Source: Euzebyales bacterium | Lineage (GTDB): Bacteria > Actinomycetota > Nitriliruptoria > Euzebyales > JAHELV01 | Assembly (NCBI GenBank): GCA_035461305.1 | Contig: DATHVN010000076.1 | Coordinates: 667-64,666, forward strand | Length of the DNA stretch: 64,000 nt | Direction of reading: 5' to 3' | Part shown: in pieces, positions 5,447 to 40,065 of the stretch | How the letters are laid out: each line of letters opens with the position of its first letter | How positions within the stretch are numbered: the stretch's first letter is position 1 | Made by a program: the position numbers and the translations under genes | The notes under the pieces: model-generated | What the model saw: only the letters and a program-made list of their open reading frames with translations | Databases searched by the model: none | Told to the model about the DNA's origin: nothing

Positions 5447-5959
5447 TCAGCCATGTTTCGGGTCGATGGCGTTTCCGGTCGCCCACCTCGAGCGTCCCAA
5501 CGTGATCGCGTCCCTCCCCGTGTGCGTGGCAGCCGACCCCGGCCACCCGGCAACACCTGCCACACCCACCCCGCGTGGCAGCTGACGCCGGCCACCCGGC
5601 ACCACCTGCCACACCCAAGGGGACCGTCCGGCGCTGGCGGACGGCTCCACCCGCACAGGGCGCGTCAATGCGGCGTGACGGAGTCCGATGTGCTCGGCGA
5701 ACTGTGCGCCGGCGTCCTCCTGCAGGTTGTGCCCGGCCCTCTCGATCGTCACGTACCCCTTGCCCGGAGCGCCGGGGATCCGTGACTGGAACACGGTCTC
5801 TGCGCCGGCGGTGATCGGGTCGGAGTCGGAGAAGGCTGTCAGGAACGGCTTCGTCCACGCCTCGAGCACGCGCCACGGGCGGCGCTGGTCCCCCGATGCC
5901 GGGTCGACGGGACGGATGGGCACCAGCGCCGGGTAGATGCGCGTCGTTGCGTCGAGCAT
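5447..5959 (-). pseudogene. 5'-truncated fragment of a haloalkane-dehalogenase-type alpha/beta hydrolase
   Basis: Only the first ~95 codons (IYPALVP..WTKPFLTAFSDSDPITAG..IPGAPGKGYVTIERAGHNLQEDAGAQFAEHI) resemble the C-terminal third of HLD-I type hydrolases. An in-frame TGA lies a few codons upstream of the ATG. There is no nucleophile-elbow region, and the 3' tail reads through the 49-bp repeat. Confidence 0.5.
5524..5617. repeat. Direct tandem duplication, two 45-nt copies at 49-nt period
   Basis: gcgtggcagccgaccccggccacccggcaacacctgccacaccca (5524-5568) is repeated as gcgtggcagctgacgccggccacccggcaccacctgccacaccca (5573-5617), with 3 mismatches. It lies ~90-190 nt upstream of the amt start. 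Confidence 0.8.
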
Positions 5960-6157
5960 GTGGTGGGAGGCTGCGCCGGGTCAGCACGTGCTGCTCCTCT
6001 CGACGATCCGCCAGCAGGTCCGGATCGACGGGTGCCGTCACCCTGGCGCGACGGCCGCGGTCGCGTCGCCTCCGGTCGGCGTCGACCGCACGCTCGTGCC
6101 GCGACCGGTCGGCGTGCCAGATTGCGACAGTGGACGGACCACCGGTCCGCCGTGGGT

Positions 6158-8009
6158 TCAGGCGCCGAGCAGGTGGTTGAGGGCGGCAGGCACCTGCGTG
6201 TAGTTCGCAATCGGCGCGACCTCCCCGTGGCCGCCCGGCGCGAGCTCGCGGGCAAGCTGCTCGTCGTGCTCGCCGTCTGTCTCGAGCAGCACGTGGAGGC
6301 GCTCGAATCCCGGCGCGACGTCCCGCGGGTCGGGGTCCCGCGTTGTGCACCGCGTCGGACAGCAGATGCCGATGCGTGTGCGGGCGCGGGCGCGGCGCAG
6401 CTCGCGCAGGCCGCTCTCAAGACCGAACGCGACGTTGGTCAGCCCACGGGCTGGGATGCGCAGCAGGTCGCGCAGCACGACCTCTCCACCGCGATGCGTG
6501 TCGATGGGCTTGACCAGGGCCGCGTCCTTCCAGAACGCGACCACCCCGAGCTCGTCGTCGATGAGGTCACGGCCAGCGCCCCGATGGCGGCGGCGGCGAT
6601 GCGCGCCTTCTCCCCACGCATCGACCCGGACACGTCGCCGATCAGGGTGACTGCGCGCCGGGTCTGCATGCGCTCACGCACCAGGACGTCGGTGTCCTCG
6701 GGCACGGGACGCTCGGTCAGCACCTCCAGTGTGCGGTCCAGGTCGATGTCGTCGGAGCTGTACCGGTAAGGGGCCGTCATGATCCGGCCCTGCCCGGGTC
6801 TGGTGACGCGGTCGCGCGGCCGCCGGCGCACCGACAGGCGACCGGCGATCCGCTGGACCATCGCCGACACCACCGGGTCGATCGCGTGCCCTTCGATCAG
6901 GTCCTCGAGCTGCACCGTCTCACCGTGCTCGCCGGTCGGCGCGCCACGCGGGCTACCTACGGCGTCCGTCGGTCTCGCGGGCGTGGACGGACCGCGACCG
7001 TTGCCCATGAGCACCAGCCCGCCATCGGCTGTGGAGCGGTACAGGTCCGGCACCGCGTCGAGCTGCTTCGGCTTGCGCGTCAGGGGTCGGCGGGCCTGCC
7101 GTGTCGGGCGCTCGCCGGGCGGGAGCCGGTGTTGGATCGGGTTGTCGGCGTCGAGGGCGATGTGGCCGGGCGCGGCGCGCGCCGGGTGGAGCACGAAGTG
7201 GTCCTCCCAGATCTCGGTGATGATCTGTTCGGGTGTGGCCTCGGTGATCTCGTCGAGGTGACCCGACCCGACAACGCCAGCAGCGCCGCCTCCAGGATCA
7301 GATCAGCACGGACACGATCGTCCTCCGGTTCGCCACGCAACTCCAGCAACCGCTCCACCACGAGCACCAGATCGATCGCACCACGGACACTCGACCCCAA
7401 CCGCACCGCCGGATGCGACCGCGTCGCACGCGCCAACGCGACCGCATCATCGATCAACCGCCGATCCCCCGACGACGTCCGCAACGCGACGATGTCAGCC
7501 TCCTCCCCCGCATCCTGGTAGCCGATCGCCAGACGACACAACCGGTCATAGATGCTCGCCGAGATCCGCGTCGTCCCCACGTTGTCGAACGGGTTCATCG
7601 ACGCCACCAACCGGAAGCTGTCAGCCGCGGCGATCCGCCCCACCCGCGGCACCACCACCTCACGCTCGGCCATCGCCGTCAACAACGCGTCGAGCGTGTC
7701 CTCCGGCGCCCGGTTGAACTCCTCGATGTACAGGAACCCCCCATCACGCATCGCCGCGACCAACGGCCCCGCTACGAAGTTGTCCGCGCTGTAGTCCTCA
7801 CGCAGCACACGCGCCGGGTTGTGATGACCGATCAGCTTCGCAGGCGTCAGATCGGCGTTGCCCTCCACCATCACGAACGGGATCCCCCACGACGCCGTGA
7901 TCCCACGCAGGATCGTCGACTTCGACGTCCCCGGCGGCCCCTCCAGCAACAGATCACGACCCGCAGCCACCGCCGCCAGGATCAGATCCAACTCACCACC
8001 ACGACCCAC
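6158..8009 (-). pseudogene. MoxR-type AAA+ ATPase fused to a VWA domain through a Pro/Arg-rich linker; interrupted by two 1-nt frameshifts (or assembly errors)
   Basis: ORF pieces 7080..8009, 6439..7194 and 6158..6544 join into one protein if shifts at ~7260 and ~6570 are corrected (..LALSGRV|HLDEITEATPEQIITEIWEDHF.. and ..AAIGALA|GDLIDDELGVVAFWKDAA..). Walker A GPPGTSKS, Walker B FLYIEEFNRA, VASMNPFD; VWA MIDAS DVSGSM. Confidence 0.7.
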
Positions 8010-8124
8010 CAGACCGCGACCCGGCCGCGTCGGGACCGCAACGACCCGTTCTCGTCCATCCAGGCTCCGTTCGCAGGCGCCGTGCGGTGCGGCTGACGGT
8101 GGCCCGGCACCGCGTCGGCGACCC

Positions 8125-8958
8125 TCACCTCTGCGTGGACCCGGCGTCGACCGGCAGCGCGACGCCGGTCACGTACCGTGCCTCGTCGGATGCGAGCCAC
8201 AGCACCGCGTTGGAGATGTCCCGCGCCTCCACCCAGGGAATCGGGAGCATGTTCAGCGTCATGAACGCGTCCTTCGCGTCATCGAGCGTCGGATGCTCCA
8301 GGTCCGGCCGGAACAGCCCGTAGGTTGCCTCGTTGTGGATCATGTCCGTCGCAACCGCGGTCGGGTGCACGCTGTTCACACGGATCATGTGCGGCGCGAG
8401 CTCGTTGGCCAACGTCCGCATGAGACCAACGACGCCGTGCTTTGCAGCCGTGTAGTGGGCCGTGTTGGCGAGACCCATCAGACCGGCCGTGGAGCTCGTG
8501 AGGATGATCGAGCCACCGTTGCCGGCCTCGATCATCGCCGGCATGACCGCCCGGCACGTCTTCCACACGCCGGTGATGTTGACGGCCAGCATCTCCTCCC
8601 ACTGCTGTTCGGTGAGCTCGTGCGCCGGTCCGAACCCCGCGATCCCGGCGTTCGCGCTGACGATGTCCATGCGACCGAACTCGCTCACGCCCTCCTGAAC
8701 AACCGACTCCAGGGCGGCGAGGTCCCGCACGTCGGCCTTGCGGGCCATGATGCGCCGGTCGAGATCCTCGACCAGCTTCGCCGTCTCCGCCAGATCGTCC
8801 TCGGACGCCAGTGGGATCACCGACGTCTCGATGTCCTCGCACACGTCGAGCGCGATGATGTCGGCGCCCTCCTCGGCCAGCCGGACCGCATGGGAGCGGC
8901 CCTGCCCCCGTGCGGCACCGGTGATCAGTGCGACCTTGCCTTCGACTCGTCCTGCCAT
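8125..8958 (-). CDS. Short-chain dehydrogenase/reductase, mycofactocin-coupled SDR subfamily type (carveol-dehydrogenase-like)
   Basis: ATG 8958 is preceded by GAAGGAGG. GKVALITGAARGQGRSHAVRLAEEGADIIALDVC N-terminus; catalytic YTAAKHG; ..DISNAVLWLASDEARYVTGVALPVDAGS. Confidence 0.8.
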   Translation of the reverse strand: MAGRVEGKVALITGAARGQGRSHAVRLAEEGADIIALDVCEDIETSVIPLASEDDLAETAKLVEDLDRRIMARKADVRDLAALESVVQEGVSEFGRMDIVSANAGIAGFGPAHELTEQQWEEMLAVNITGVWKTCRAVMPAMIEAGNGGSIILTSSTAGLMGLANTAHYTAAKHGVVGLMRTLANELAPHMIRVNSVHPTAVATDMIHNEATYGLFRPDLEHPTLDDAKDAFMTLNMLPIPWVEARDISNAVLWLASDEARYVTGVALPVDAGSTQR

Positions 8959-8980
8959 TGCGCAGCCTCCTTCGCCGTGG

Positions 8981-9285
8981 TCATTTCTGGGTGAAGCCGG
9001 CATCGACGGGCAACGCGACACCCGTCACATAGCGGGTCTGGTCGGATGCCAGCCAGACGATCGTGTTCGAGATGTCGATGGCCTCGAGCATCTCGACCGG
9101 CAGCAGGTTCTCGATGTTCATCTCGGCGCCCTCGTGCTCCTCGAGCCACGCCTGCGTTGCCTCGTGACCACCATCGGCGTGTTCACCGCGGTCGGGTGCA
9201 CCGTGTTCACGCGGATGTGGTACGGCGCGAGCTCATGGGCCAGCGTTCACGCCAGACCGACCTTCCCTTCCAACAGCCCTGCCAT
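8981..9285 (-). pseudogene. Collapsed SDR paralog with an internal deletion
   Basis: Keeps the RBS, ATG and first 12 codons (MAGLLEGKVGLA). An in-frame TGA marks the junction to the SDR C-terminal third (TLAHELAPYHIRVNTVHPTAVNTPM..). A further frameshift precedes ..IVWLASDQTRYVTGVALPVDAGFTQK*. Confidence 0.65.
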
Positions 9286-9309
9286 GGCTTCGCTCCTTCG
9301 TCCGTGCGC

Positions 9310-9838
9310 TCAGGCGGCGTTGGTTGCGTTCTGGCCCGCGGCCACGGCGATCGACTCGCCGGTGATGTACCGGGCGCCCTTCCAGCACAGGAAGACCATG
9401 GCCGCGGAGATGTCCTCCGGCTCGACCCACGGGATGGGGATCGCGTTGAGCGACTGGAAGATCGGCGCCGCGTCCTCCTCCGTGGGGTTCTCGAGGTCGG
9501 GCAGAGAAGAGCCGGTAGGCGGCGTCGTTCTTGATCATCGCGGTGTTGACACCCGTCGGGCAGACGGCGTTGACCGTGATGCCGGAGGCGGCGACCCCCT
9601 GCGCGGTCGACTTGACCAGTCCGATGACGCCCCACTTGGAGGCGACGTAGTGGCCGACGTTGGCGAAGCCCATCTTCACGGCCATCGACGACACCGCGTA
9701 CGGCACTGACCCGAGCTGCGCGGCGACGTCACAGAACGCCACGTCGGCGCCCTCCCGCGCGAACGCGAGCGCATGCGATCGACCCTGACCCCTCGCACCC
9801 GCCGTGATGAAGACGGTCCTGCCGTCGAACTGTCCCAT
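9310..9838 (-). pseudogene. Collapsed SDR paralog with an internal deletion and a frameshift
   Basis: AGGAGG RBS and ATG 9838 (MGQFDGRTVFITAGARGQGRSHALAFAREGADVAFCDV..). About 100 central codons are missing before ..GHYVASKWGVIGL... A 1-nt shift near 9500 precedes ..IPIPWVEPEDISAAMVFLCWKGARYITGESIAVAAGQ..*. Confidence 0.65.
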
Positions 9839-9923
9839 TGCTGCCTCCTGCTGGTGTTCGCTGTCCTTCGTGGGCGTCGGCTGTGGTCGGGGATCGGTCA
9901 CCCTCCTCGGTCGTGGATGGTCA

Positions 9924-10748
9924 TCAGTGGGCCAGCGACCCGCCGTCGACCGCCAGGCAGTGGCCCGTGACACCGCAGGCCGTATCGCCGAGCAGCCACA
10001 GCAGCGCGCCGGTCACCTCCGATGGCTGGATCACGGTCTCGAACAGCTGGTGGTGCAGGAACCGGCGATGGACGTCCGCGGCGGTCAGCCCGAGCTCGTC
10101 GGCGAGGCCGTCGAGCATCGGCGACTGGACCGTGCCGGGCAGCAGCGCGTTGACGGTGACGCCGTCGGGCGCCAGCTCGATCGCCATGGCCCGTGTCAGA
10201 CCGATCACGCCGTGCTTGGCGGCGACGTAGTGCGCGAAGTCACCCACCGCCCGCTGGCCCGCGGTCGACGCGATGTTGACGATGCGCCCTCGATCGAACA
10301 TCCGCACATGGGGTGCCGCGGCCTTCGCGACCCGCCAGACCCCGCCGAGATCGATGTCGATCACCGCCTGCCACTGCGCCTCCGTCAGCTCCCAGAACGG
10401 CGCGCTGGTGACGACGGCGGCATTGTTCACCACGATGTCGATGCGCCCGAGCGCGTCGACGGTGGCCGCGACGGCCGCGGCCACCTGGTCGGCGGCGCGG
10501 ACGTCGGCCACCAGCGGGACGGCCCGCCGGTCCAGCTGCTCGACGCCGGCGACGGTCTCGTCGAGCTCTGCGCGGGTGCCCAGGTGGTAGCTCGGCACGT
10601 CCAGGTCAGCGCAGATGTCCAGCGCCGCCACGTCGGCTCCCGCCGCCGCCATCGCCAGGCAGTGCGAGCGGCCCTGCCCGCGTGCGGCGCCGGTCACCAG
10701 CGCGACCCGCCCCGTCCGGTCGGGTGCCACGCCGTCGGCTCCCGGCAT
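9924..10748 (-). CDS. Short-chain dehydrogenase/reductase, mycofactocin-coupled SDR subfamily type
   Basis: ATG 10748 follows GGGAGGGAGG. GRVALVTGAARGQGRSHCLAMAAAGADVAALDIC, NNAAV, catalytic YVAAKHG, ..GVTGHCLAVDGG. Confidence 0.8.
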   Translation of the reverse strand: MPGADGVAPDRTGRVALVTGAARGQGRSHCLAMAAAGADVAALDICADLDVPSYHLGTRAELDETVAGVEQLDRRAVPLVADVRAADQVAAAVAATVDALGRIDIVVNNAAVVTSAPFWELTEAQWQAVIDIDLGGVWRVAKAAAPHVRMFDRGRIVNIASTAGQRAVGDFAHYVAAKHGVIGLTRAMAIELAPDGVTVNALLPGTVQSPMLDGLADELGLTAADVHRRFLHHQLFETVIQPSEVTGALLWLLGDTACGVTGHCLAVDGGSLAH

Positions 10749-10985
10749 CGTTCACCTCCCTCCCAACCGATCGAGTTCTGGGGTGGCAGAACCACCTGGA
10801 ATCGATCAGCTCCTCAGGAGTATGGTGCATCGAATCCCACCAATTCCGTGGCCGCAACTCAGTTCAAGACGAATCCCGATGAAGTTCTCGTGTCACCAGA
10901 CTGTCCGGTGAATCACGTGCACAGACACCGGGCCGAATCCGGCGACGGCGTCACGCAGCCGGCCGCCGGTCGCGCGTGACGCCGC

Positions 10986-11669
10986 ATGTCCCGGAGAGAC
11001 CACCTGCGCATCTCGGACGCGTGCCACGTTCTCGGCATCAGCCGGTCCACACTGCTGGCCGCGGAGGAGGCGGGCCTCATCACGGCCGGGCGAACCCCGG
11101 GCGGCCACCGCCGGTTCGCCCGTGAGGAGCTCGAGCGCTACCTCGCCACGCACGGCGGGTCGGCGTCGTCCGACGACCCCGTAGCGCACCGGCCCGGCGC
11201 CGGTCCCGGCCGCGAACGCGTGGCCACCGACCTGCGCATCGCACTGCGCGAGCTCGTCCAGCTGGTCGACGCCACCTGTGCCGGCGTGTACCTGCTGGAC
11301 CACGACCGGCTCGCCTACTGCGCGGGCTTCGGCATCCCCCGCTGGCAGGCGGACAGGCTGCTGTCCACCGCACCCCCAGACGCGGTGGTCAGCGCACTGG
11401 GTACCAGCCGGCTGCGCATGGTCGACGCCACCGGCGTCGTTTCGCGACCCCGGGGCGGTCAGGCCGTCACCCTGCCGATGCTGTCGGACCGCACACCGCT
11501 CGGCGTGCTGTTCGTCGTGGGGCGCGCCGGCCACGAGCTGCTGCCGGGTGAGCTGCGGATCATCGCCGCGGCGCAGCGGATGCTCGCGCTGCTCGTCGAC
11601 CGCCTGCAGCGACTCGCGGATCTGGAGCGACGGCTCAGCGGCGTGCGGGATCTGGCTGCGTCGTCGTGA
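10986..11669 (+). CDS. MerR/excisionase-type HTH regulator with a C-terminal GAF-like domain
   Basis: N-terminal HTH (LRISDACHVLGISRSTLLAAEEAGLI..GHRRF). The C-terminal ~140 aa follow a GAF-like pattern (..GVYLLDHDRLAYCAGFGIP..LGVLFVVGRAGHELLPGELRII..). Confidence 0.6.
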   Translation: MSRRDHLRISDACHVLGISRSTLLAAEEAGLITAGRTPGGHRRFAREELERYLATHGGSASSDDPVAHRPGAGPGRERVATDLRIALRELVQLVDATCAGVYLLDHDRLAYCAGFGIPRWQADRLLSTAPPDAVVSALGTSRLRMVDATGVVSRPRGGQAVTLPMLSDRTPLGVLFVVGRAGHELLPGELRIIAAAQRMLALLVDRLQRLADLERRLSGVRDLAASS

Positions 11670-11692
11670 GGACGAGCGTCAGCGCGCCGTGA

Positions 11693-12922
11693 TCAGGTGG
11701 ACCGTTCGTGCAACGCAGAGGTCCCCCGCAGGTGCCCACGTGGACCGCCGAGGCTGCGGACGAAGTCCGGCGGGATGACGAGGTCCTCCCTGGACAGCTC
11801 GTGGATCGACGACCGCCGCAGACCCATCAGGGCGGAATCGAGGCCGTTGCGCAGGATGTCCAGCACGTTCTCGACCCCGGCCTGGCCGTTGGCCGCAATG
11901 CCCCACAGGTACGCCCGGCCGATGAGCACCGCCTTCGCTCCCATCGCGAGGGCCTTCAGGACGTCGCTGCCTCGCCGGATGCCACCGTCCATGAGCACCT
12001 CCACGTCGTGGCCGACCGCGTCGACGATCGCGGGCAGGGCCCGCAGCGACGCGGGAGTGCCGTCGAGGTTGTTGCCACCGTGGTTGGAAACCGAGATGGC
12101 CGTCGCACCTGCGTCGACCGCGGCCTTGGCGTCGTCGAACCGCATGATGCCCTTGACCATGAACGGTCCGCCCCACTGCTCGCCGAGCCATCGGATGTCG
12201 TCCCACGTCGGCTGCGGCGTCTGCATCCACTCCCCGTACGCGCCGAAGAACGTCGGCTCGGGCTGACCAGGCACCTGCATGTTCGGCACGGTGAGCGCCG
12301 GCGGGTGCAGCGTCCTCGCGTAGTCCATCAGGTAGCGGAACTTACCGCCCAGGATCACCTCCGGCGCGTACCGCAGCATGGTCCGCACGTTCATCTCCGA
12401 CGGGATGGCAGGACTGCCCCAGTCGCGGGCGTGCGAGAACGACCAGTCCAGGGTGACGATCAGGCCCACGGCGCCGGCCCGGCGCGCACGCTCGACCCGG
12501 TAGGCGATGTCGTCCCTCGATCCCGACCAGTAGGTCTGGAAGAAGGTCTGCGGATTGGCCTCGACGACCTCCTCGACCGGCCTGCTGCCGAAGGCGCCGA
12601 GTCCAATCGGGACGCCGCGGTTCGCGGCCGCGCGCGCGACGGCCACCTCGCCTTCGGGATGCACGGCCTGCACGCCTGTGGGCGAGATCATCACCGGCAT
12701 CGACCACGGCTGCCCCATGACGGTGGTGGACTGATCGCGCGCCGCGGGCAGATCCACGATGTGGGGGGCGAGTTCGATCTCGCTGAACGCCCGCAGGTTG
12801 TCGCGTAACGTCGTGCCCTGCTCCGACCCCGCGACCAGAGCCATGTACACCGACCGCGGAAGCCTCCGCCTGGCTCGCCGTCGCGCCTCGAGCACGGTCT
12901 CGAACCAGTCGCTGGCCATCAT
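11693..12922 (-). CDS. mftD: FMN-dependent alpha-hydroxy-acid dehydrogenase family, pre-mycofactocin synthase MftD-like
   Basis: Start at ATGATG 12922/12919 after AGGAGAGGG. MASDWFETVLEARRRARRRLPRSVY.. N-terminus and ..ISVSNHGGNNLDGTPASLRALP..DGGIRRGSDVLKALAMGA..GRAYLWGIAANGQAGVENVLDIL.. track my recollection of mycobacterial MftD (LldD-like). Confidence 0.8.
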   Translation of the reverse strand: MMASDWFETVLEARRRARRRLPRSVYMALVAGSEQGTTLRDNLRAFSEIELAPHIVDLPAARDQSTTVMGQPWSMPVMISPTGVQAVHPEGEVAVARAAANRGVPIGLGAFGSRPVEEVVEANPQTFFQTYWSGSRDDIAYRVERARRAGAVGLIVTLDWSFSHARDWGSPAIPSEMNVRTMLRYAPEVILGGKFRYLMDYARTLHPPALTVPNMQVPGQPEPTFFGAYGEWMQTPQPTWDDIRWLGEQWGGPFMVKGIMRFDDAKAAVDAGATAISVSNHGGNNLDGTPASLRALPAIVDAVGHDVEVLMDGGIRRGSDVLKALAMGAKAVLIGRAYLWGIAANGQAGVENVLDILRNGLDSALMGLRRSSIHELSREDLVIPPDFVRSLGGPRGHLRGTSALHERST

Positions 12923-12932
12923 CCCTCTCCTG

Positions 12933-13118
12933 TCAGGGTCGAGGCGTGGGGCGCTCGCGGAGTCGTCCTGGCGCGAATGTAACGGCACAAGGGCCGTCCG
13001 ACAGGCCATCGACATCGCGGTACCCGGGGGCGGCTGGACGCTTCACCGAGCCCTGACAGGCGGAGGACAGCAGACGTCCTACGCGGTCCTTCTCGCCATC
13101 TGATATCGGTCCCAGCAT
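12933..13118 (-). pseudogene. Speculative 3' stub of an upstream operon gene (possibly an mftC remnant)
   Basis: 61-codon ORF ending 10 nt before the mftD-like start. Its Cys-containing tail (..SSACQGS..DGPCAV..) is only weakly reminiscent of a SPASM C-terminus, and low-GC non-coding-looking DNA begins immediately upstream. Confidence 0.2.
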
Positions 13119-14599: not shown

Positions 14600-14641
14600 C
14601 CGCCTGCGTCGTCGGCTGACGACGTCCACATGTCGTTGCGA

Positions 14642-15037
14642 TCAGCGCACACCACGACCACCCACCTGGGGGCCATACAGCCTGCGCTCGAGAAACCGCC
14701 CGAGGTAGCTGTGACGGTGCGAATCCGATGGGTGCACGACGAGCAGTGGCGTTGGGTTTCTGTCACGAGCCGCTGGACGAGGCCGGTGAACTCCACGTCC
14801 GGGTGCTGGCGCTGCTCGGTGGCGCCGACGACGACCATGTCGGCGGCGCCGGCCGCCTCGCGAAGTCGAACCGCCGGATCGTCAGCTCGTTCCACAACGC
14901 TCGCCCGCGGCCTCGGCGGCCAGACCCGGCAGCACGAAGATGCCGCTGCCGATCATCGCGCCGAGGCTGATCGTCACGGCCTCCGGGAACCCCAGGCCAC
15001 GTTCGAGGGATGCGCCCTCCCCGGGGCCTCCAGCCAT
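14642..15037 (-). pseudogene. Collapsed APC-family amino acid permease with a C-terminal USP domain
   Basis: From ATG 15037: MAGGPGEGASLERGLGFPEAVTISLGAMIGSGIFVLPGLAAEAAGE, a permease N-terminus with TM1. It then stops and jumps to a USP C-terminus (..REAAGAADMVVVGATEQRQ..GLVQRLVTETQR, frameshift, PLLVVHPSD..*). All remaining TM segments are absent. Confidence 0.55.
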
Positions 15038-15046
15038 GGCCCGAGT

Positions 15047-17732: not shown

Positions 17733-17819
17733 GCACGTCCTCCGCGGCGGTCGGCAACCAGTCCGGTCATCGTGCCCCGCGTCGCCGACCCTGTCGACCG
17801 CGTCCGTCGCGCAGACGCC

Positions 17820-18395
17820 TGCGTGATCACGAGGTCGCTGTGCAGGATCGCCGGCATCCGCGACAGCCGCAGGTCAGATCCTGTGCCGGCACCTCGTAGT
17901 CGATCGTTCCGGTCAGGAAGCGCACGGCGTGGCACATCAGGGCGATGGTCATCCACTCACCGGCGCAGCGGTGGTTGACGGGCAGAGCGTTGAGCAGCTC
18001 GACCGCCGCAGTCGAGCGATCAAGGACCGCACCGTCCGAGTCCCGGTCCGTCGCGACCCGCCACAGCGCGGTGTTGTCGTCGACCAGCAGCCGCCCGGCG
18101 CGCACATCGCGGACGGGGCCCCGCGCCCACCGGTTGCCGCGCTCCGCGGCCGATCCGACCACGGACGTAGCGGTAGCCGCGCTGCCCGCCGCAGTCGATC
18201 ATCGCCGCGAGTCCGCGGTGCGCGTCGCCACATGTGGTTCCGGCAGCGGGACACCGGCCCAGGCGCACACATGCGGGTGCGGGTCTGGAAGACGTCACTG
18301 CGGAAGCGCTCACAGCGCTTGGTGATGAACTCATAGCCGTCGGTCAGCAGCGCGAGGGTGCTGCCGACGCCCGGGGTGGCCCGTGCTGGGCTCAC
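17820..18395 (-). pseudogene. Heavily collapsed CYP152-type (fatty-acid peroxygenase) cytochrome P450
   Basis: GTG 18395 after AGGAGC gives ..STLALLTDGYEFITKRCERFRSDVFQTR (P450 N-terminus). Frame-shifted islands follow: ..AGVPLPEPHVATRTADLAAMID.., ..VRDVRAGRL..DSDGAVLDRSTAAVELLN.., and the heme-Cys region NHRCAGEWMTIALM...YEVPAQDL..SRMPAILHSDLVI. At least two internal deletions and several frameshifts. Confidence 0.5.
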
Positions 18396-20046: not shown

Positions 20047-20604
20047 GTGAACACGGCGCTGATCGACGCGGCGTGCGAGCTCATCCCCGAGGTGGGCTGG
20101 GGATCGGTCACCACCAGGGGCGTGGCGGCACGGGCCGGTGTCCGGCCCGGGCTGGTCCACTACCACTTCGACTCAGTCGAGGCGCTGCTCGTGGTCGCCG
20201 CGACGCGGGCCGCCGACGGTCTGGTCGACGAGGTCCGCGACGTGCTGGCCGACGCGCCAGACATCGCCTCCGGGATCGACGTGCTCGTCGCGACGACCGC
20301 CGCAGTCGGCGATCGGGGCCCGGCGAGGCTGCTGCTGACCGAGGCGTCCCTGGCCGCCGCGCGGATCCCGGACCTGCGGGTCGCCCTGACCGCGTCGCTG
20401 GCCGACCTGCGCACCGTGCTCGCGACGTGGCTGCGGCACCGCGGGCACGACGGCGACGCCGACGCGACAGCGGCGGTCATCACCGCCGCACTCGATGGCT
20501 GGGCCCTGCACCGCGCCGCCGACCGGTCCCTGGATGTCACGCCGTTCCGCAACGGCCTGCGGACGCTTGCCACCGTTGGACCCGAAGGGAGCGGACCGGA
20601 GTGA
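20047..20604 (+). CDS. TetR family transcriptional regulator
   Basis: N-terminal HTH (LIDAACELIPEVGWGSVTTRGVAARAGVRPGLVHYHFDS) and a helical C-terminal domain. Confidence 0.75.
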   Translation: MNTALIDAACELIPEVGWGSVTTRGVAARAGVRPGLVHYHFDSVEALLVVAATRAADGLVDEVRDVLADAPDIASGIDVLVATTAAVGDRGPARLLLTEASLAAARIPDLRVALTASLADLRTVLATWLRHRGHDGDADATAAVITAALDGWALHRAADRSLDVTPFRNGLRTLATVGPEGSGPE

Positions 20605-21010
20605 GAGCACTGATCTGCGGCACCGGGATCGCCGACTGGCGACGGCGTGGTGGCTCGACCGCACCGGCTGGGACGTCGTCGTCGAGCAGGCCGTGCGCCT
20701 GCGCGACGAGGGTACATGATCGACTTCTGGGACGCCGGCTACGACGTGGCCGAGCGGATGGGGCTGCTCCCCCGCCTGCGCGACGTCGCCTACCATGTCG
20801 ACCGCGTCAGCTGCGTCGACGCGGCCGGGCGCGAGGTCAGCCACATCGACTACGACCTGTTCGCGCGAATGCAAGCCGGCCGGCTGCTCACCCTCATGCG
20901 CGGCGACCTCGAGCACGCGCTCTACGACGCGCTGGCCGACGGCGTCGACCTGCGGTGCGATCGCAGCATCGCGCGGATCGACGGCGACGGCGCCTACCCG
21001 TCCGGCGCAG
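20601..21010 (+). pseudogene. FAD-dependent monooxygenase fragment, frameshifted and 3'-truncated
   Basis: GTG 20601 overlaps the TetR stop (GTGA). VRALICGTGIA, shift, GLATAWWLDRTGWDVVVEQAVRLRDEG, shift, YMIDFWDAGYDVAERMGLLPRL..TLMRGDLEHALYDAL... Homology is lost after ~130 codons. Confidence 0.55.
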
Positions 21011-26922: not shown

Positions 26923-27574
26923 ATGCCGAAGCTACGGGTGCACAACCTCTCGATCTCGCTCGATGGCTACGCCGCCGGACCGCACCAGTGCCGCGACCAT
27001 CCCCTCGGCATCGGCGGCGAGCGCCTGCACGACTGGGCGTTCGCAACGCGCACGTTCCGGCGGATGCACGGCATGGAGGGCGGCGGGACCGGTCTCGACG
27101 ACGACCTCGCCGCGCAGGGCAGCCAGGGCATCGGCGCCGGGATCATGGGGCGCAACATGTTCGGGCCGGTCCGTGGGCCGTTGGGGTGACGAGCAGTGGG
27201 ACGGCTGGTGGGGCGACGACCCGCCCTTCCACCACCCGATCTTCGTGCTGACCCACCACCCGCGACCGGCGGTCGAGATGCAGGGCGGCACGACGTTCCA
27301 CTTCGTCACCGACGGCATCGAGGCGGCATTGGAGCGCGCCTTCGCGGCTGCGGACGGCCTGGACGTCAGTGTCAACGGTGGCCCGGCGACGATCCGGCAG
27401 TACCTGCGGGCCGGGCTGATCGACGAGCTGCACGTCGCCATCGCGCCGCTGCTGCTGGGCGCCGGTGAGCACCTGTTCGGCGACCTGGGCGACGCCGTCG
27501 ACGGCTACGAGTGCGTCGAGCTGACCAGCTCCCCGGCGGCGGCGCACATGCGCCTGGTGCGGACCACGCCGTGA
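26923..27574 (+). pseudogene. Dihydrofolate-reductase-family (RibD C-terminal domain) protein with one frameshift (or assembly error)
   Basis: ATG 26923 (MPKLRVHNLSISLDGYAAGP..IMGRNMFGPVRGP) continues in another frame as WGDEQWDGWWGDDPPFHHPIFVLTHH..VNGGPATIRQYLRAGLIDELHVAIAPLLLG... A 1-nt insertion lies near 27181. Confidence 0.65.
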
Positions 27575-30027: not shown

Positions 30028-30992
30028 ATGAAGACGGAGCTCGACGAACGGTACGGCGAGCCTGGCGCTGAGCCGACGCCGTGGGCGACGGCCGAGGACG
30101 AGATGGCCGCGGCGGACGTCTGGTGGGTCACGACCCTGCGCCCCCCAGGGCGGACCGCACGCCACGCCACTGCTCGCGGTGTGGGCCACCGGCGCGCTGC
30201 ATGTCTGCACCGGCCGCGGCGAACAGAAGTGGCGGAACCGGGCGGGCAACCCGCGGTGCTCCGCCATCACGGGACACAGCGACAGGACGAGCGGCACCGA
30301 CTACGTCGTCGAGGGCGTCGCCGAGCGCGTGGTGGACGACGGGCGGCTGCGGGAGCTGGCGGACGCGTGGGAGGCAAAGTACGGACCGGAGTGGCACTTC
30401 GACGTCGCCGACGGCGCGTTCGTCGCCGGCGGCCACGTCGCCGAGGTCTTCAGAGTGCGACCGACCGTCGCCTACGCCTTCGGCAAGGACCCCTACAGCC
30501 ACACCCGCTACCGCTGGCCGGCGCGCACAGGCGCCGTTGCGGCGGCGTCGCTGCGGGACGCCACCGTGGCGGTCCGGCTCCCCGCCCAGGACCTGGACCG
30601 TGCCCGGCGCTTCTACGCCGACGCGCTCGGCCTCGAACCGAACGAGACCCGCGACGGCGGGCTGCGCTATCTGTGCGGCGACATCGAGTTCGTGGTGTTC
30701 AAGTCGTCGGGCCGTCGGTCCGGCGAGCACACGCAGGCGGGCTTCTACGTCGACGACATCGACGCGACCGTCGCCGAGCTGTCGGGCCGCGGCGTGGTGT
30801 TCGAGCAGGCGGCGATGGATGATCTGCCCGTGGACGGCGTCGTGGTCGACATCCCCCGGTACCTATCCATCCACCGGGGCGGTCGGCGAACGGGCGGCCT
30901 GGTTCCGCGACAGCGAAGGCAACCTGCTCGGCGTCAGCCAGCTCGTGATGCCCGGGTCGCCTGCTGCCGCACGCGACGTCTTCAGGCGGTGA
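30028..30992 (+). pseudogene. Pyridoxamine-5'-phosphate-oxidase-like protein running into a VOC/glyoxalase-fold domain; two frameshifts in C-runs
   Basis: MKTELDERYGEP..DVWWVTTLRP, shift at the C6 run 30141-30146, ..HATPLLAVWATGALHVCTGRGEQKWRN..AEVFRVRPTVAYAF... No stop precedes the VOC part (..VRLPAQDLDRARRFYADALGLEP..GFYVDDIDATVAELSGRGVVF..). Shift at the C5 run 30853-30857, then ..ERAAWFRDSEGNLLGVSQLV*. Confidence 0.6.
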
Positions 30993-35342: not shown

Positions 35343-35447
35343 TCGCCGACACGGCGAGCGGCCACGGATGCCGCCGCCCGCCGCATCTCCGGCGCGACGA
35401 GGCCGTCACCTGTTTCGATGCCGAGGTGTCCGCAACGAGGTGGGGTC

Positions 35448-35847
35448 ATGAAGATCATGCTGCTGTGCTCGGCCTTCAATGGCCTGAGTGAACGGGCGTG
35501 GATCGATCTGCGCGGCAGGCCATGAGGTCGTCGTGCGCGTCGTCGGCGACGCCGAGGCGCTCACCGCCGGCCGCCCGGCGTTCGAGGACGCCGTCGTGTC
35601 CTGTGCGCACCGGCTCGCGGCGAGCGACCGCTACGACGAGCTGCTGGTCGCCAAGCACACACCGCCCTCGAGGCGGACACGTGCGACCTGCGGCTCGACG
35701 CCTATCGCGTGCAGGAGCTGGCCGAGATGCGGGCGGACATCTTCGACGACCGGCTTCTCGTCCGCGCGTCTGGCGTTCGTGTCGAAGCAGCCACCCGGCG
35801 CCGGTCCGCGACCGACCGAGGCCGAGGCACGCCCCGCCGCGCACTGA
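35448..35847 (+). pseudogene. Collapsed HoxX/HypX-like (formyltransferase / enoyl-CoA hydratase fusion) gene
   Basis: ATG 35448 gives MKIMLLCSAFNGLSERAWIDLR, a stop and shift, then AGHEVVVRVVGDAEAL... It then jumps to a C-terminal-type segment (..YDELLVAKH..LDAYRVQELAEMRADIFDD..). About 130 codons remain of a family that is normally >500 aa. Confidence 0.45.
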
Positions 35848-35939
35848 TCGGCAGACGGGCGGGCTGAGCAGGGCGCCGGCCGATCGTCCTCGGCTACGCT
35901 GCAGGTCCGCCCACACACGCTCGACCGCGGAGGATGGCG

Positions 35940-36404
35940 ATGAGGATCGCGTTCGGTGCCGACGACACATCTGCGACGGTCGACGCGGTGCTCGACCACC
36001 TGCGCGACGCCGGTCACGACGTGACGGTCGTCGACGCGGGCACGCCGTGGCCGACCATCGCCCACCGGGTGGGCACGGCGGTCGTCGACGGCACGACGGA
36101 CACGGGCATCGTCATGTGCTGGACGGGCACCGGCACGAGCATCGCGGCCAACAAGGTCCCCGGGGTGCGTGCCGCGCTGGCGTGGGAGCCGTGGATCGCG
36201 CGAAACGCGCGCCGATGGAACGACGCCAACGTCCTCGCGCTGAGCCTGAAGCGCACGGCGCCGGACGTCGCGGTCGAGATCGTCGACGCGTTCCTCGACG
36301 TCGAGACGCCCGACGCCGACGAGGTCGACAACATCGCAGCCATGGAGCGCTGGCAGGGGCCCACGGGCATCGACTCGACGAGTGGATTCAAGTCTAACGT
36401 TTAA
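35940..36404 (+). CDS. rpiB: Ribose-5-phosphate isomerase B (RpiB/LacA/LacB family)
   Basis: MRIAFGADD.., ..GIVMCWTGTGTSIAANKVPGVRAAL..ARRWNDANVLALS... ATG 35940 lies 6 nt after GGAGG. Confidence 0.8.
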   Translation: MRIAFGADDTSATVDAVLDHLRDAGHDVTVVDAGTPWPTIAHRVGTAVVDGTTDTGIVMCWTGTGTSIAANKVPGVRAALAWEPWIARNARRWNDANVLALSLKRTAPDVAVEIVDAFLDVETPDADEVDNIAAMERWQGPTGIDSTSGFKSNV

Positions 36405-36986
36405 CTAGAACGTGAGAGTTCTGCGCTGCGCAAAGTCGGAATAGCCCTCGGTATCGCGATCACAGGGAGCTCCGCGCCCTGGCAGCACGCGGCGATACCT
36501 GACCTCGGGCGCCTCGATGCCCAGCACGGTCTGGCGACGCCGTGTGCCGTCGGCGGCCCAGCCCCGCGCCGTGTAGAAGACCCGCGCGCGTTCGTTGCCC
36601 TCGTGGACCCACAGCACGGCGTCGCCGAACCCCACCGCACGCAAGCGGTCACAGCCGGCGGCCAGCAGGGCGCTGCCGACGCCGCGACGCCAGTGGTCAG
36701 GGTCGACGTAGAGCGCATAGACCTCACCTCGCGCCGCATCTGCCTTGAGCTCCTCGCCGCCGACCAGGACGAACCCGACCGCGCGCCCGAGGTCCTCCAG
36801 CAGCAGCTGTGCGGACCGCCGGGGCGGATCGTCGAGCACCTCGTGCCACAGATCGATCCGGTCCGTCACCGACAGCCCGTCGAGGAACGCGGCGGGCATC
36901 AACCCCCGGTACGCGCGCTGCCAGGCCCGCACGTGCAAGTCGGCGAGCGCGTCCGCGTCGTGCGGGTGTGCCGTGCGCAAGTGCAT
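36405..36986 (-). CDS. GNAT family N-acetyltransferase
   Basis: ..LYVDPDHWRRGVGSALLAAGCDRLRAVGFGDAVLWVHEGNERARVFYTARGW... Its stop abuts the rpiB stop with no gap. Confidence 0.75.
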   Translation of the reverse strand: MHLRTAHPHDADALADLHVRAWQRAYRGLMPAAFLDGLSVTDRIDLWHEVLDDPPRRSAQLLLEDLGRAVGFVLVGGEELKADAARGEVYALYVDPDHWRRGVGSALLAAGCDRLRAVGFGDAVLWVHEGNERARVFYTARGWAADGTRRRQTVLGIEAPEVRYRRVLPGRGAPCDRDTEGYSDFAQRRTLTF

Positions 36987-37079
36987 CGGCGTCTCCGGTG
37001 TCGCGGCGTTCCTGCACCGACGCTAGCCGCTGGTGCCGGGTCCGTTCACCCAGCCCCGGCTGCTGGTGGTCCCTGAACG

Positions 37080-37900
37080 GTGCCGGAACGTGTGTTAGTG
37101 GACAACCGTCGGCACACCCGGACGAGCAACGTCCGCAACACCACGGTCCCGGCGCCGGAGCTGACGATCGAGGTGCCCGACGAGGGCAGCAAACTCCGCG
37201 GCACCGTCGAGGTGCGGGCGGTGGCCGACCCGGAGCGGGGCACGCACGAGGTCACGTTCGAGCGCCGCGTCGGTGACGGCGGGTGGACCGAGATCGGGAC
37301 CGACGACTCGTCGCCCGCCTACTCGGTGTTCGACGACCTCTCGGCGCTGAGCCTGGCGGCGGGCACCGCGATCGCCTACCGAGCGACGCCGCACGACGGC
37401 GACACGACGGTGGTCAGCGACGTGCGGACGGTCCAGTTCGCCGGGCCACCGGCCGAGCAGGCGATCGTGCACTAACACCGGCCCGCGGGCGACTACGCCG
37501 ACTGGGCGCTGCACCTCTTGGGCGACGCGGTCGCTCCCGACGTGCTGGCGAGAGGCGCGTCCGCCGGGCGGGGGGTGGGCCTGCGAGGCTGCCCGGTGGT
37601 CGAAGGTGGGCGATGCGAGTACAGCACCCGAGCGCAAAGGCGACCACCCACACGGCGAACGCGCGCACACGTGCGTCGGCGCCACCGATCGTGTCCGCGT
37701 CCGCCGGAACCGTGCTCACCGACGGTCCTCCGGCACCTCGGCCTCCCTGGTTCGACACGGCGTGCGTGGAACGGGCTTCGCTGCCGCACGGGCGATTCGG
37801 ACCCGGACATGATGCACCGTCGTGGTAGCAGGACCGTCGCCTCGACAGCCGTGGACTTGTACCGCGAACGACTGTCCAACGACGAACGCGGCTGTGCGCG
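37080..37900 (+). pseudogene. Internal fragment of a pullulanase/alpha-glucan-debranching-type glycosidase with an in-frame stop
   Basis: Ig-like segment (..LTIEVPDEGSKLRGTVEVRAV..), then ..QAIVH-TAA(37473-37475)-HRPAGDYADWALHLLGDAVAPDVLA, resembling the HYHRPDGDY-W-LH-WGD N-terminal motif. No signal peptide or catalytic domain follows. Confidence 0.4.
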
Positions 37901-39517
37901 TCAGGCCAGACGCAGAACGCGGTACATGGGAACCGGCTGTTCGCGCCCCTTGACGGCGACCGGGCCGAGCGCTTCCGCGACCACCCGGTCCGCGACGCGG
38001 TCGTGGGTCGCGCCCGACAGCACCACTTCCCCGGGCGTGGCTGCGGCCTGGACCCGCGCCGCGACGTTGACCGCGTCTCCGATCACCGTGAACGAGTGCT
38101 GCCGGTCGGTGCCGACGTTGCCGATCACGGCGCGGCCGGTGTTGACGCCGATCCGGAAACGGGGCCATCCGGGGTGGGCGTCGGCGACGTCGCGCACCGC
38201 GTCGCGCATGCCGACCGCCGCCTGCACCGCGCGCAGGGCGTGGTCGGGCTGGTCACCCAGCGCATTGAAGACCACGAGCACGGCATCGCCCGCGAAGCGC
38301 TCGATCATGCCCTCCGGCGCACCCGTGACGGCGGGCACGGCGCGCTCCCAGTACCCGTTGAGCATCGTGACGACCTCGGCGGGGTCACGTGCCTCGGAGA
38401 ACGCGGTGAAGCCGGCGAGGTCCGCGAACAGCACGGTGATCTCCGCCTCGTGCCCGCCGAGACCGGCACGGTCCGGGTCGTCGACCAGCCGCGACGCAAG
38501 TTGCGGTCCCACATAGTGTCGGAACAGCTCGTCGACGCGGACGAGCTCGCGTGCGGATCGCTCGAGCGCGCGGACCTCGTCGGCCCCCAGCCCGCCGTCC
38601 TTGAGGTCCTCGACGACCGTGGCGGTCGATCCACCCTCCTCCAACGTGCGCACGAACGCCGCCAGCCCGGACGAGGTGCGCTCGTCGAGGCGGTCGATGG
38701 TCCGGTCGAGATATAGCCCGCGCAGCGTCCCGGTCACCGACCGCTCCCGGCGGTAGGCGGAACGCGCGGCGAGGAACACCACGCCGAACGCCGCGGTGAT
38801 CAGGACGTGCCACTCCCACCATGTCACATGCCAGGCGCGTCCGAACATGATCGCGATCATCGCCTCGGCCAGCAGCACGAAGGCCACCGCCACGGCCAGC
38901 GGCAGCTGGTCACCGCGTGTGCGGTGGAGCCCGAGGTAGCGCACGGCGGCCACCAGGTACAGCACGATCGCCAGCGGCGCCAGGAGCCGGATCACGGGCG
39001 GGGCGATCTCGGCGGGAGGTGCGTCGAGCCCCGACGTCCGTGTCAGCGAGGCGACGGCCCACGCGACGATCACGGCGCCGATGCCGGCGCGCAGTGCACG
39101 CAGCCGTCCACGGCTGCGTCCCCACCTGACGAGCTCGACCGTCGAGGCGACCGCCAGGACAGAGGCGAGCAGCAGCCCAACGGGCGTCGCGATCGTGAAC
39201 CCCAGGTTCTGGTCGGCGAGCACGACGCCCGGCGTCGCCAACGCGTGCAGCCCGAGGAACCCGGCACACGTCAGCAGGACGAGCGACACCAGGAAGGTGC
39301 GGCTGTCGGCGTGCTGCTCGGCGGCACCGCCGATGACCAGCCCCAGCACCAGATCGACCACCGCGACCAGCAGCACGAGCCAGAAGTGGGCGGGATGATG
39401 CTGCCACTCGACGTCGAGCGGCGGCACCGCGAGCAGCACGACCAGCCCGACCATCGGGAGCGCCAGCACCGCGAGCACGGCCGGCAGCCGCGTCCACCGG
39501 GTGGCTGCGGCGCTCAT
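37901..39517 (-). CDS. Membrane-anchored class III adenylate/guanylate cyclase
   Basis: ATG 39517. About 7 hydrophobic segments, then ITVLFADLAGFTAFSE..FAGDAVLVVFNA..RIGVNTGRAVIGNVG..TVIGDAVNVAARV. Confidence 0.8.
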   Translation of the reverse strand: MSAAATRWTRLPAVLAVLALPMVGLVVLLAVPPLDVEWQHHPAHFWLVLLVAVVDLVLGLVIGGAAEQHADSRTFLVSLVLLTCAGFLGLHALATPGVVLADQNLGFTIATPVGLLLASVLAVASTVELVRWGRSRGRLRALRAGIGAVIVAWAVASLTRTSGLDAPPAEIAPPVIRLLAPLAIVLYLVAAVRYLGLHRTRGDQLPLAVAVAFVLLAEAMIAIMFGRAWHVTWWEWHVLITAAFGVVFLAARSAYRRERSVTGTLRGLYLDRTIDRLDERTSSGLAAFVRTLEEGGSTATVVEDLKDGGLGADEVRALERSARELVRVDELFRHYVGPQLASRLVDDPDRAGLGGHEAEITVLFADLAGFTAFSEARDPAEVVTMLNGYWERAVPAVTGAPEGMIERFAGDAVLVVFNALGDQPDHALRAVQAAVGMRDAVRDVADAHPGWPRFRIGVNTGRAVIGNVGTDRQHSFTVIGDAVNVAARVQAAATPGEVVLSGATHDRVADRVVAEALGPVAVKGREQPVPMYRVLRLA

Positions 39518-39669
39518 GTGCGCCGCCCCGGCTCCGGTGACGCCTGCAGTGTCGCATCGAGGTGGCCGGCGTCGAGGTGGATGACCCGGATCCCGAGCAG
39601 CGTGCCGAGGCCGCGGCTGACATGGGTCCTGCCGCCGCCACAGTTGCCGATGACTGCCACACGCTGCAC
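39514..39669 (-). pseudogene. N-terminal stub of a P-loop kinase (topology-modulation/adenylate-kinase-like)
   Basis: GTG 39669: VQRVAVIGNCGGGRTHVSRGLGTLLGIRVIHLDAGH.. then stop after 51 codons. The P-loop is degenerate (GNCGGGRT). Confidence 0.35.
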
Positions 39670-39749
39670 GCCTGCAGCGTAGCGACACCGACCCGCCGGG
39701 CACGTCCTAGAGTGCAGCTCCGAGCCGCCCCGACGCGAAGGGACGTGCG

Positions 39750-40065
39750 ATGTTCGCCATGTTCGGCAAGCTGACGGCCACGTCAGGGCAGCGCGACGAG
39801 CGCTCGAGATCCTCCTCGAGGCCGCGGACGTCGTGGGCGACGTCGACGGTGCACGCTGTACCTCGTGAACATGGCCACCCACGATCCGGACGGCGTGTTC
39901 GTCTACGAGGTGTGGGACAGCGCGGACGCGCACCGGGCCTCGCTGGAGGTCGAGGCGGTGCGCAGCGCCATCTCGCGCGCAATGCCGCTGCTCGTGGGCC
40001 CGCCGATCGGCCAGTTGACGCTGACGCCCGTCGGCGGCCTGGGGATGCCAGAAGCCGGAGGTTGA
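39750..40065 (+). pseudogene. Antibiotic-biosynthesis-monooxygenase (ABM) fold protein with two 1-nt frameshifts (or assembly errors)
   Basis: MFAMFGKLTATSGQRDE, shift, ALEILLEAADVVGDVDG, shift, CTLYLVNMATHDPDGVFVYEVWDSADAHRASLEVEAV..PVGGLG. Read across three frames. Confidence 0.55.

Follow-up and report, generated by a model that had tools for sequence, protein, structure and literature searches.

Probable stages of pseudogene erosion along a variable chromosomal region in an uncultured member of the Euzebyales

How does a stretch of bacterial DNA come to hold so many genes that are broken, or of which only pieces are left? The question is raised by positions 5447–40065 of a 64,000-nucleotide stretch (hereafter the window) from a Euzebyales bacterium (assembly GCA_035461305.1, contig DATHVN010000076.1), which is part of the 80.8-kb metagenome contig k141_64915 (ENA ERZ27272640). 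A sequence-only reading of the window, made without database searches, had listed 14 degraded genes, several of them described as keeping both termini but not their middles, and had offered reductive evolution with a deletion bias, recombination between short repeats, or a systematic collapse of the assembly as possible causes. I find that this reading was largely right, in that most of the listed items are real remnants. They are probably pseudogenes caught at various stages of erosion by deletion, in a fast-changing accessory region of the genome of an uncultured Euzebyales; the process is ordinary, known bacterial pseudogene decay, and involves no new mechanism.

A dense patch of decayed genes

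The G+C content is ∼71% along the whole window, and plain lists of open reading frames (ORFs) are uninformative at such a high value. The window was segmented with a codon-usage model and the stop-to-stop pieces were scanned against Pfam, while frame-corrected reconstructions were scanned against NCBIfam and Pfam. Contigs from relatives, 77–88% identical to the window in DNA, were reached through homologues of LMF1, GH3 and RpiB. One of these (L008) belongs to the same assembly as the window. The others include JGI/NMDC and Logan contigs, among them L093 (JGI/NMDC 3300070347), from a close relative, as well as L098 (NCBI GCA_036374135.1), from another Euzebyales metagenome-assembled genome (MAG). 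No close cultured or GTDB-representative genome was found: LMF1 is at most 63% identical to homologues in named taxa, and the closest match in a genome scan with MftD was 72%, with no self match in that collection.

Between positions 5447 and 40065 (34.6 kb), I count 24 intact genes and 15 pseudogenes or remnants, which account for ∼65% and ∼23% of the bases, respectively. About 37% of the loci between 5.4 and 40 kb are pseudogenes, many of which are shortened by >50%, and at least 10 remnants have lost between 35 and 90% of their length; in Salmonella, few pseudogenes have lost >20% (PMC2916853). The gene calls supplied with the window give a coding density of 78% between 5 and 26.5 kb, which falls to 66% when fragment ORFs are excluded, compared to 91–93% in the related contigs L008 (92%), L009, L010 and L094. 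The unusually high density of remnants is real, as is the depth of their erosion, and both clearly exceed what is usual in a typical bacterial genome. By comparison, 2 remnants and ∼25 intact genes lie in the remaining 29 kb (Fisher p = 0.005 against 5447–40065), and the locus at 41.9–59.8 kb shows full domain coverage nearly throughout. The excess is a regional one, and the much lighter damage elsewhere in the window points to a variable accessory region; the gene content of the relatives differs greatly in exactly the 5–40 kb region.

Thirteen of the 14 listed remnants are supported by the tools used here, the weak one being an ammonia-lyase, and one part of another (a proposed USP tail on an APC permease) found no support. 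For four of the listed genes, namely CYP152, PNPOx-VOC, the HypX/HoxX-like gene and amylase-PUD, syntenic contigs carry an intact copy where that of the window is collapsed or frameshifted, and at the level of sequence these relatives amount to direct proof of decay. The comparison with the relatives also yielded an intact mftR-mftABC, and no syntenic intact orthologue of the dehalogenase, APC, FAD monooxygenase, P-loop, ABM, DHFR-like or lyase items. Profile coverage is partial for the dehalogenase, the APC permease, the FAD monooxygenase, the P-loop protein, the two SDR remnants (A and B), PUD and the lyase, and becomes full only after frame correction for ABM, RibD_C and MoxR-VWA. The GH65 and GH15 genes that L009 has between an abhydrolase and DUF2254 are not counted as remnants, since no trace of them could be detected in the window.

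Collapsed, truncated and frameshifted genes

The following three remnants keep both ends:

17807–18395, minus strand: CYP152 (CypC-like peroxygenase), both ends kept, identified from its orthologue in L006
35448–35867, plus strand: HypX/HoxX-like gene with extra small frameshifts, identified from the intact gene in L094/L095
9313–9838, minus strand: SDR remnant A, N-terminus and C-terminal half with one frameshift, identified with adh_short_C2

In L006, the C-terminal 300 amino acids of a CypC-type protein are intact, just upstream of a HAD gene, and match positions 122–414 of 416 in the CypC profile NF053744. Relative to this orthologue, tblastn and DNA alignment reveal at least two large internal deletions in the window CYP152 (one mapped at 17980, 354 nt) and at least five small indels, several of them of 1 nt, confirming the collapse proposed for 17820–18395. 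L002 retains a smaller remnant of this gene, made up of a 33-nt piece and its final ∼60 codons, and the breakpoint differs from that of the window.

The intact HypX-like gene encodes 572 amino acids (with Formyl_trans_C and ECH_1 domains), and lies between a deacetylase gene and RpiB in L094/L095. Compared to it, the copy described as collapsed at 35448–35847 has indeed kept only its first ∼40 and last ∼100 codons (a 5′ piece of ∼128 nt and a 3′ piece of 322 nt), with 1293 nt gone in frame. Its start codon and native stop are still present in the window, with further frameshifts parting their reading frames, and its ends lie 105 bp from the deacetylase stop and ∼70 bp from the RpiB start. L093 also possesses a HypX remnant with both ends kept, with two deletions whose breakpoints are unlike those of the window. 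In SDR-A, the N-terminus and positions 128–235 of adh_short_C2 remain, with an in-frame internal loss of approximately profile positions 45–127.

The loss of the middle between two preserved termini is true of these three remnants and of none of the others, and its description as a distinctive pattern was overstated. Several remnants had been said to retain a ribosome-binding site, a start codon and the native stop: a start codon in a plausible ribosome-binding context is found in HypX, APC and the FAD monooxygenase, and the native stop in HypX, but start and stop do not share one frame. The dehalogenase, SDR-B and the lyase retain only the C-terminus, and the FAD monooxygenase and the P-loop protein only the N-terminus, as does APC so far as the tools show; the amylase-PUD piece is internal, and four genes are full length with one or two frameshifts.

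Other decayed genes were encountered in the relatives. L093 carries, together with its HypX remnant (4161–4835), a 188-amino-acid N-terminal sulfatase stub (2626–3192) that is absent from the window, and an amylase-PUD remnant (6041–7297). L098 (125–2416) places a pseudogene in the syntenic region of a second Euzebyales MAG: relative to L010, +1 and −1 indels 279 bp apart divide its GH3 orthologue into three ORFs. Searches of PDB sequences with reconstructions of HypX and amylase-PUD returned nothing meaningful, and it is the syntenic orthologues that later settled both identities.

The one-sided and internal fragments are:

5447–5959, minus strand: haloalkane dehalogenase, C-terminal fragment, identified with NCBIfam PRK00870
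8984–9246, minus strand: SDR remnant B, C-terminal third with one frameshift, identified with adh_short_C2
14640–15037, minus strand: APC amino-acid permease, N-terminal stub followed by frameshifted sequence of uncertain origin, identified with TIGR00909
20601–21010, plus strand: FAD-dependent monooxygenase, N-terminal third with two frameshifts, identified with PRK07588
36912–37550, plus strand: amylase-Big_7-PUD, internal fragment (Big_7 region and first 27 PUD positions), identified with PUD, L093 and L010/L011
39514–39669, minus strand: P-loop protein (DNA topology modulation or kinase-like), N-terminal stub, identified with PRK08118
62078–62345, minus strand: aromatic amino-acid ammonia-lyase or aminomutase, possible C-terminal remnant (weak), identified with Lyase_aromatic and Tyr 2,3-aminomutase

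All of these had been singled out in the sequence-only reading, and for most of them the profiles agree with it. The dehalogenase (5447–5959) covers only positions 207–294 of 302 in PRK00870 (E = 2.7e-26), the homologous part spanning ∼5687–5950 and the rest of the ORF being a non-homologous tail with a tandem repeat. SDR-B covers only positions 156–236 of 236 in adh_short_C2 (E = 2.7e-16), so that both proposed SDR remnants have partial coverage of this profile. The FAD monooxygenase (20601–21010) covers only positions 14–130 of 392 in PRK07588 (E = 2.6e-32), and the P-loop stub (39514–39669), read as a kinase, positions 2–41 of 172 in PRK08118 (E = 3.9e-5), the P-loop lysine being lost (GGGRT). 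The proposed collapse of an APC permease with a USP domain is upheld for the permease stub, which matches only positions 1–35 of 429 in TIGR00909 (E = 4.4e-5); its tail has no Usp match in Pfam (E ≤ 5) or NCBIfam. The lyase, placed at 62102–62345, matches positions 400–465 of 466 in Lyase_aromatic (E = 0.0032) and 436–491 of 507 in Tyr 2,3-aminomutase (E = 0.012), and is a weak case.

The fragment described as pullulanase-like, with an in-frame TAA (at 37473, in place of a Tyr), matches PUD positions 2–27 of 97 (E = 1.2e-4), and its parent is an amylase-Big_7-PUD protein of 951 amino acids, the gene for which is intact after RpiB in L010/L011. Its ∼210 codons are 68% identical to residues 145–338 of the 418-amino-acid ORF that is left of this gene in L093. 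A GNAT acetyltransferase gene (36405–36986, minus strand) occupies the place of the first ∼2 kb of the L010/L093 amylase-PUD gene, which suggests that the 5′ part may have been replaced, instead of simply deleted.

The surviving pieces adjoin live neighbours. The dehalogenase fragment is 15 bp upstream of the start of the ammonium transporter (Amt) gene at 5432, SDR-B ends ∼25 bp before the start of an intact SDR (8126–8959), the APC stub starts 10 bp past the LMF1 stop, the GTG start of the FAD monooxygenase overlaps the TetR stop codon, and HypX lies between the deacetylase and RpiB genes. The APC interval spans 465 bp in the window, versus 72–78 bp in L002 and L006. For the FAD monooxygenase, a gene of 370 amino acids between YjbR and TrmO in L002 was considered as the intact form, and rejected, as tblastn gave no match in the window.

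The four full-length genes are:

6161–8009, minus strand: MoxR-type AAA_5 and VWA pseudogene with two frameshifts, identified by alignment to L013 and with Pfam
26923–27571, plus strand: RibD_C/DHFR-like pseudogene with one frameshift near 27172, identified with the RibD_C profile
30028–30989, plus strand: PNPOx-VOC fusion pseudogene with two +1 insertions, identified from its orthologues in L008 and L009
39750–40065, plus strand: ABM-domain pseudogene with two frameshifts within ∼100 bp, identified with the ABM profile and a three-frame translation

The number of frameshifts read from the sequence was correct for each of them. L013, a single ORF of 612 amino acids, matches the window in three frames (8009–7347, 7257–6607 and 6556–6164), and the frame-corrected MoxR-VWA protein covers AAA_5 positions 1–139 and VWA_2 positions 4–93; the homologues found in the metagenome scan are only 49–57% identical, and prove the full-length architecture but give no synteny. 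The DHFR-like gene matches RibD_C positions 6–180 of 197 (E = 1.2e-15) only with two frames joined, and the ABM protein matches ABM positions 1–75 of 78 (E = 1.6e-11) with three frames joined. A syntenic intact orthologue was not found for either. For PNPOx-VOC, the intact orthologues (320 amino acids in L008, 326 in L009) align to the window in three frames, placing the insertions at ∼30141, in a C6 run, and ∼30853, in a C5 run. The changes specific to each lineage number 14 non-synonymous and 20 synonymous in the window, and 10 and 23 in L008, counts that are small and depend on an uncertain tree; for GH3, taken as a control, the same comparison yields 50 to 80 and 27 to 56.

In addition to these genes, an entire block appears to have been lost next to mftD:

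12920–13073, no strand: deletion scar at the former mftR-mftA-mftB-mftC site, identified from L002/L003 gene calls, blastn blocks and a junction alignment

In L002/L003, these four genes (2.44 kb; 6905–9384 in L002) lie between the YccF-side DNA and mftD, where the window has ∼120 bp. MftD is intact (11693–12919, minus strand; 667 bits to TIGR03966), and both it and the mycofactocin-coupled SDR (TIGR03971) score above the curated cut-offs. The tandem SDRs of the mycofactocin-coupled type comprise two intact copies and two remnants.

Outside the 5447–40065 span, one further truncated gene was identified that is not on the earlier list:

53108–53644, minus strand: N-terminally truncated carbamate kinase, identified with arcC TIGR00746 and AA_kinase

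It covers only positions 165–308 of 309 in TIGR00746 (E = 3.9e-38) and 111–233 of 234 in AA_kinase, and lies within the otherwise intact 41.9–59.8 kb locus, together with AllG, an FdrA-like CoA ligase, ComA, DUF7714 and lyases.

Some neighbouring features are worth recording. L006 and L007 lack a ∼9-kb segment (3985–13078) that contains Amt, the dehalogenase fragment, MoxR-VWA, the four SDR copies, a MerR/GAF regulator and MftD, and in them the YccF-side DNA is joined almost directly to the PolX gene; the segment is a large insertion or deletion polymorphism among the relatives. The ammonium transporter gene (4056–5432, minus strand) has PolX next downstream, and glnK (P-II) is not adjacent to it. 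Two tandem repeats are non-coding: the one in the dehalogenase tail (49 bp × 1.9, 5524–5617) closely precedes the ammonium transporter start, and another (22 bp × 3.3, 62364–62435) is located where the MFS gene, next to the lyase remnant, has its 3′ end. Neither transposase nor integrase matches were obtained with Pfam in the window, no insertion sequence (IS) elements were found in it, and nothing that could account for the region, whether a mobile element or an RNA, came out of scans of the window for Rfam families, tRNAs and repeats, which also gave no tRNA.

How the genes may have decayed

I propose that genes no longer needed would first be inactivated by small frameshifts or a stop codon, and that the dead genes would then be whittled away by successive deletions, of 1 nt to ∼2.4 kb. 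MoxR-VWA, DHFR-like, PNPOx-VOC and ABM would represent a young class, and the dehalogenase, the two SDRs, the APC permease, CYP152, the FAD monooxygenase, the HypX-like gene, amylase-PUD, the P-loop protein, the lyase and mftR-mftABC an old one. The deletions probably arose by illegitimate recombination, with 2–9 nt of microhomology at the junctions. Live neighbours lie within ∼0–110 bp, some overlapping the remnants or belonging to the same operon-like runs, and deletions reaching a neighbour, its ribosome-binding site or its promoter would be removed by selection. The longest-lasting piece of a dead gene would then be the part abutting a live neighbour, and with a live gene on either side, on the same strand, the two termini would persist while the middle is lost: how far deletions can spread may be set by selection on the adjoining genes and their signals, so that the ends stay and the middles go. 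That the window and L093 have each independently spared the two ends of HypX would be in keeping with such an end protection. The lesions themselves are observed, as are the intact orthologues and the independent, differing deletions in sister populations; the order of events, the end protection and the deletion mechanism are what I infer from them.

I hold this account with good confidence, but several points weigh against it. Both ends are kept in only 3 of ∼11 eroded remnants, and end protection is argued from adjacency, when in a compact genome any remnant abuts something. Intact orthologues were not found for the APC, dehalogenase, FAD monooxygenase, P-loop and lyase fragments. The references are relatives and not true ancestors, at 77–88% DNA identity, which makes the breakpoints and microhomologies approximate. 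All junctions and frameshifts are read from assembled sequence, a point that also speaks for an artefact, and a second assembly of the same population was not found among the matches, the best non-self ones being 86–88% identical in protein (LMF1, GH3), with the short RpiB reaching 97% on a contig of 1.2 kb. The poly-C insertions of PNPOx-VOC, in a gene without an excess of non-synonymous changes, are either very recent or errors.

This last gene is the weak spot when it comes to an assembly or sequencing artefact, in which homopolymer or consensus errors would combine with collapses or chimeric strain joins in a short-read metagenome assembly. The source is indeed a metagenome contig, and both PNPOx-VOC frameshifts are +1 in poly-C runs of a gene that otherwise looks constrained. 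The k141_ contig name is of the kind given by MEGAHIT. For repeats to collapse in a de Bruijn assembly, their length would have to approach that of the k-mer, which the contig name puts at 141, but no direct repeat of the window exceeds 77 nt, a length reached between SDR paralogues with 79% identity, and the mapped junctions have only 2–9 nt of microhomology. The seven frameshifts are confined to 4 of 53 full-length genes (p = 0.005) and most lie outside homopolymers, only 2 of 75 G/C runs of ≥5 being affected, both in PNPOx-VOC. CYP152 and HypX bear many independent small indels besides their large deletions. In addition, L008, from the same assembly, has an intact PNPOx-VOC orthologue and a high coding density, and JGI/NMDC and Logan contigs, which come from different samples and sources, present these genes in further states of decay. 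The systematic collapse that had been offered is unsupported, and an artefact is unlikely as the source of the remnants, to the point that I give it little weight. Conserved small proteins were named as a finding that would undo the pseudogene interpretation, but it is harder still to credit that the short forms, derived from larger genes, function as such. The start codons and plausible ribosome-binding contexts of HypX, APC and the FAD monooxygenase would suit this idea, but further frameshifts leave start and stop out of frame, the catalytic middles are gone, and the short forms are not conserved: the APC stub is missing from L002 and L006, and the remnants of CYP152 in L002 and of HypX in L093 are different.

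The proposal that recombination between short repeats is responsible deserves more attention, as slippage or recombination within genes could, as the main driver, yield in-frame internal deletions that spare the ends. In the intact L094 gene, the interval missing from the window HypX is flanked by an exact 9-nt repeat (GCCGACGAG), the junction mapping to 35555–35580, and four of the five mapped large deletions keep the frame (354 nt in CYP152, 1293 nt in HypX, that of SDR-A, and the first L093 HypX deletion, of 777 nt at ∼4190). This last proportion is marginal (p ∼0.045), and the other mapped junctions have 2 nt (CYP152) or 3 and 3–4 nt (the two L093 deletions) of microhomology, which is indistinguishable from chance in DNA of 71% GC. 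Short repeats are thereby borne out at one junction and not at the others; moreover, most remnants are one-sided truncations and not internal collapses, and the breakpoints were placed against diverged relatives. I consider short repeats rather doubtful as the main driver, and the deletions more probably reflect illegitimate, microhomology-assisted recombination, unlike recombination between long repeats.

Erosion of the kind proposed above could also extend beyond this region. Reductive evolution with a deletion bias is borne out locally, the same genes being intact, partly collapsed or gone in related populations, and the window might be a typical sample of a genome-wide process like that of M. 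leprae, Rickettsia or recent symbionts, following a bottleneck or a change in lifestyle. This would extend, and not exclude, the explanation favoured here. The high proportion of shortened pseudogenes, the remnants outside the span (carbamate kinase, lyase), the pseudogenes in relatives (sulfatase, HypX and amylase in L093, GH3 with its two frameshifts in L098), and the dismantling of a whole module, mycofactocin biosynthesis with its dependent SDRs, all favour it. Against it, the other 29 kb of the window are significantly poorer in remnants, the 41.9–59.8 kb locus has near-complete coverage, the relatives vary exactly in the 5–40 kb region, as expected of an accessory or plastic region, and the window has no detected IS elements, transposases or integrases and still has a GC of 71%. 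A genome-wide decay is therefore a possibility that I raise only tentatively. With the same reserve, one may picture an ongoing, clade-wide erosion with unusually slow purging in probably free-living Euzebyales, in which about a third of loci are pseudogenes, the HypX-like, CYP152, amylase-PUD and GH3 genes collapse independently, the mycofactocin module and its SDRs are dismantled, and live neighbours shape the surviving ends.

Comparison with known systems

Deletional bias and pseudogene erosion are well established in bacteria (Mira, Ochman & Moran, 2001, as cited in PMC2916853; Kuo & Ochman, 2009, PMC2817411; Kuo & Ochman, 2010, PMC2916853; see also PMC6054270), and the window is a new instance of this well-known process. 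As in the deletional-erosion model (PMC2916853, PMC2817411), frameshifts or stops are followed by shrinkage, and the same loci are seen intact, frameshifted, collapsed or gone. The difference is that here at least 10 remnants persist despite having lost 35–90% of their length, which suggests slower purging, or many mid-sized deletions hemmed in by live neighbours.

Microhomology-associated deletions, and an excess of deletions in multiples of three, have been reported in pseudogenes (Danneels et al., 2018, PMC6054270). The 2–9 nt of microhomology and the in-frame large deletions of the present data resemble this observation, but that study concerns small indels (≤15 nt) in large samples, as opposed to five large deletions mapped against diverged relatives. 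The value of the present set is that related populations catch the same genes at different stages of decay, providing mapped deletion junctions in an actinobacterium of 71% GC. Two lineages have independently collapsed the HypX-like gene with both ends spared, which fits a spread of deletions limited by the neighbours.

A functional mycofactocin system possesses mftA, mftB and mftC, for the precursor, its chaperone and the radical SAM maturase, together with mftD, and the usual cluster comprises mftA–F, mftR and coupled SDRs. The window shares MftD and a coupled SDR with it, and the mftR-mftA-mftB-mftC-mftD order of L002 is the usual one, but mftR, mftA, mftB, mftC, mftE and mftF are not present in the window, and two of the four tandem SDRs are remnants. 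Judged from its gene content, the cluster is a relic and not a working system, unless another copy is present elsewhere in the genome. The loss of mftR-mftABC beside decaying coupled SDRs makes a clear case of the piecewise loss of a functional module. For annotators of such MAGs, it also matters that many fragment ORFs of this region are liable to be called as small genes.

Mycobacterium leprae and Rickettsia have pseudogene-rich, decaying genomes. The same is true of Sodalis glossinidius (PMC7067036) and leaf-nodule Burkholderia (PMC6054270). A literature search for papers discussing pseudogenes in Euzebyales found none, the sole paper containing both words being an unrelated genome report. 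The window resembles these genomes in its local fraction of about one third pseudogenes, its coding density of ∼65%, and its eroded remnants beside intact genes. They differ in that their decay is genome-wide and associated with host restriction, several of them showing IS expansion, a frequent companion of early decay, whereas the excess described here is seen in ∼35 kb of one contig, with 71% GC and no IS found, from a bacterium that probably lives in soil. A soil origin is likely, as the GTDB scan returned other third-party annotation (TPA) MAG records whose contigs bear k141_ names, and these come from the SMAG soil catalogue (PMC10640626). If the whole genome is alike, this would be an unusual decay for a probable soil bacterium, a rare case of M. 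leprae-like erosion outside host restriction, and a natural collection of deletions from which to read their spectrum in high-GC Actinomycetota; if only this region is affected, it would represent a normal plasticity zone.

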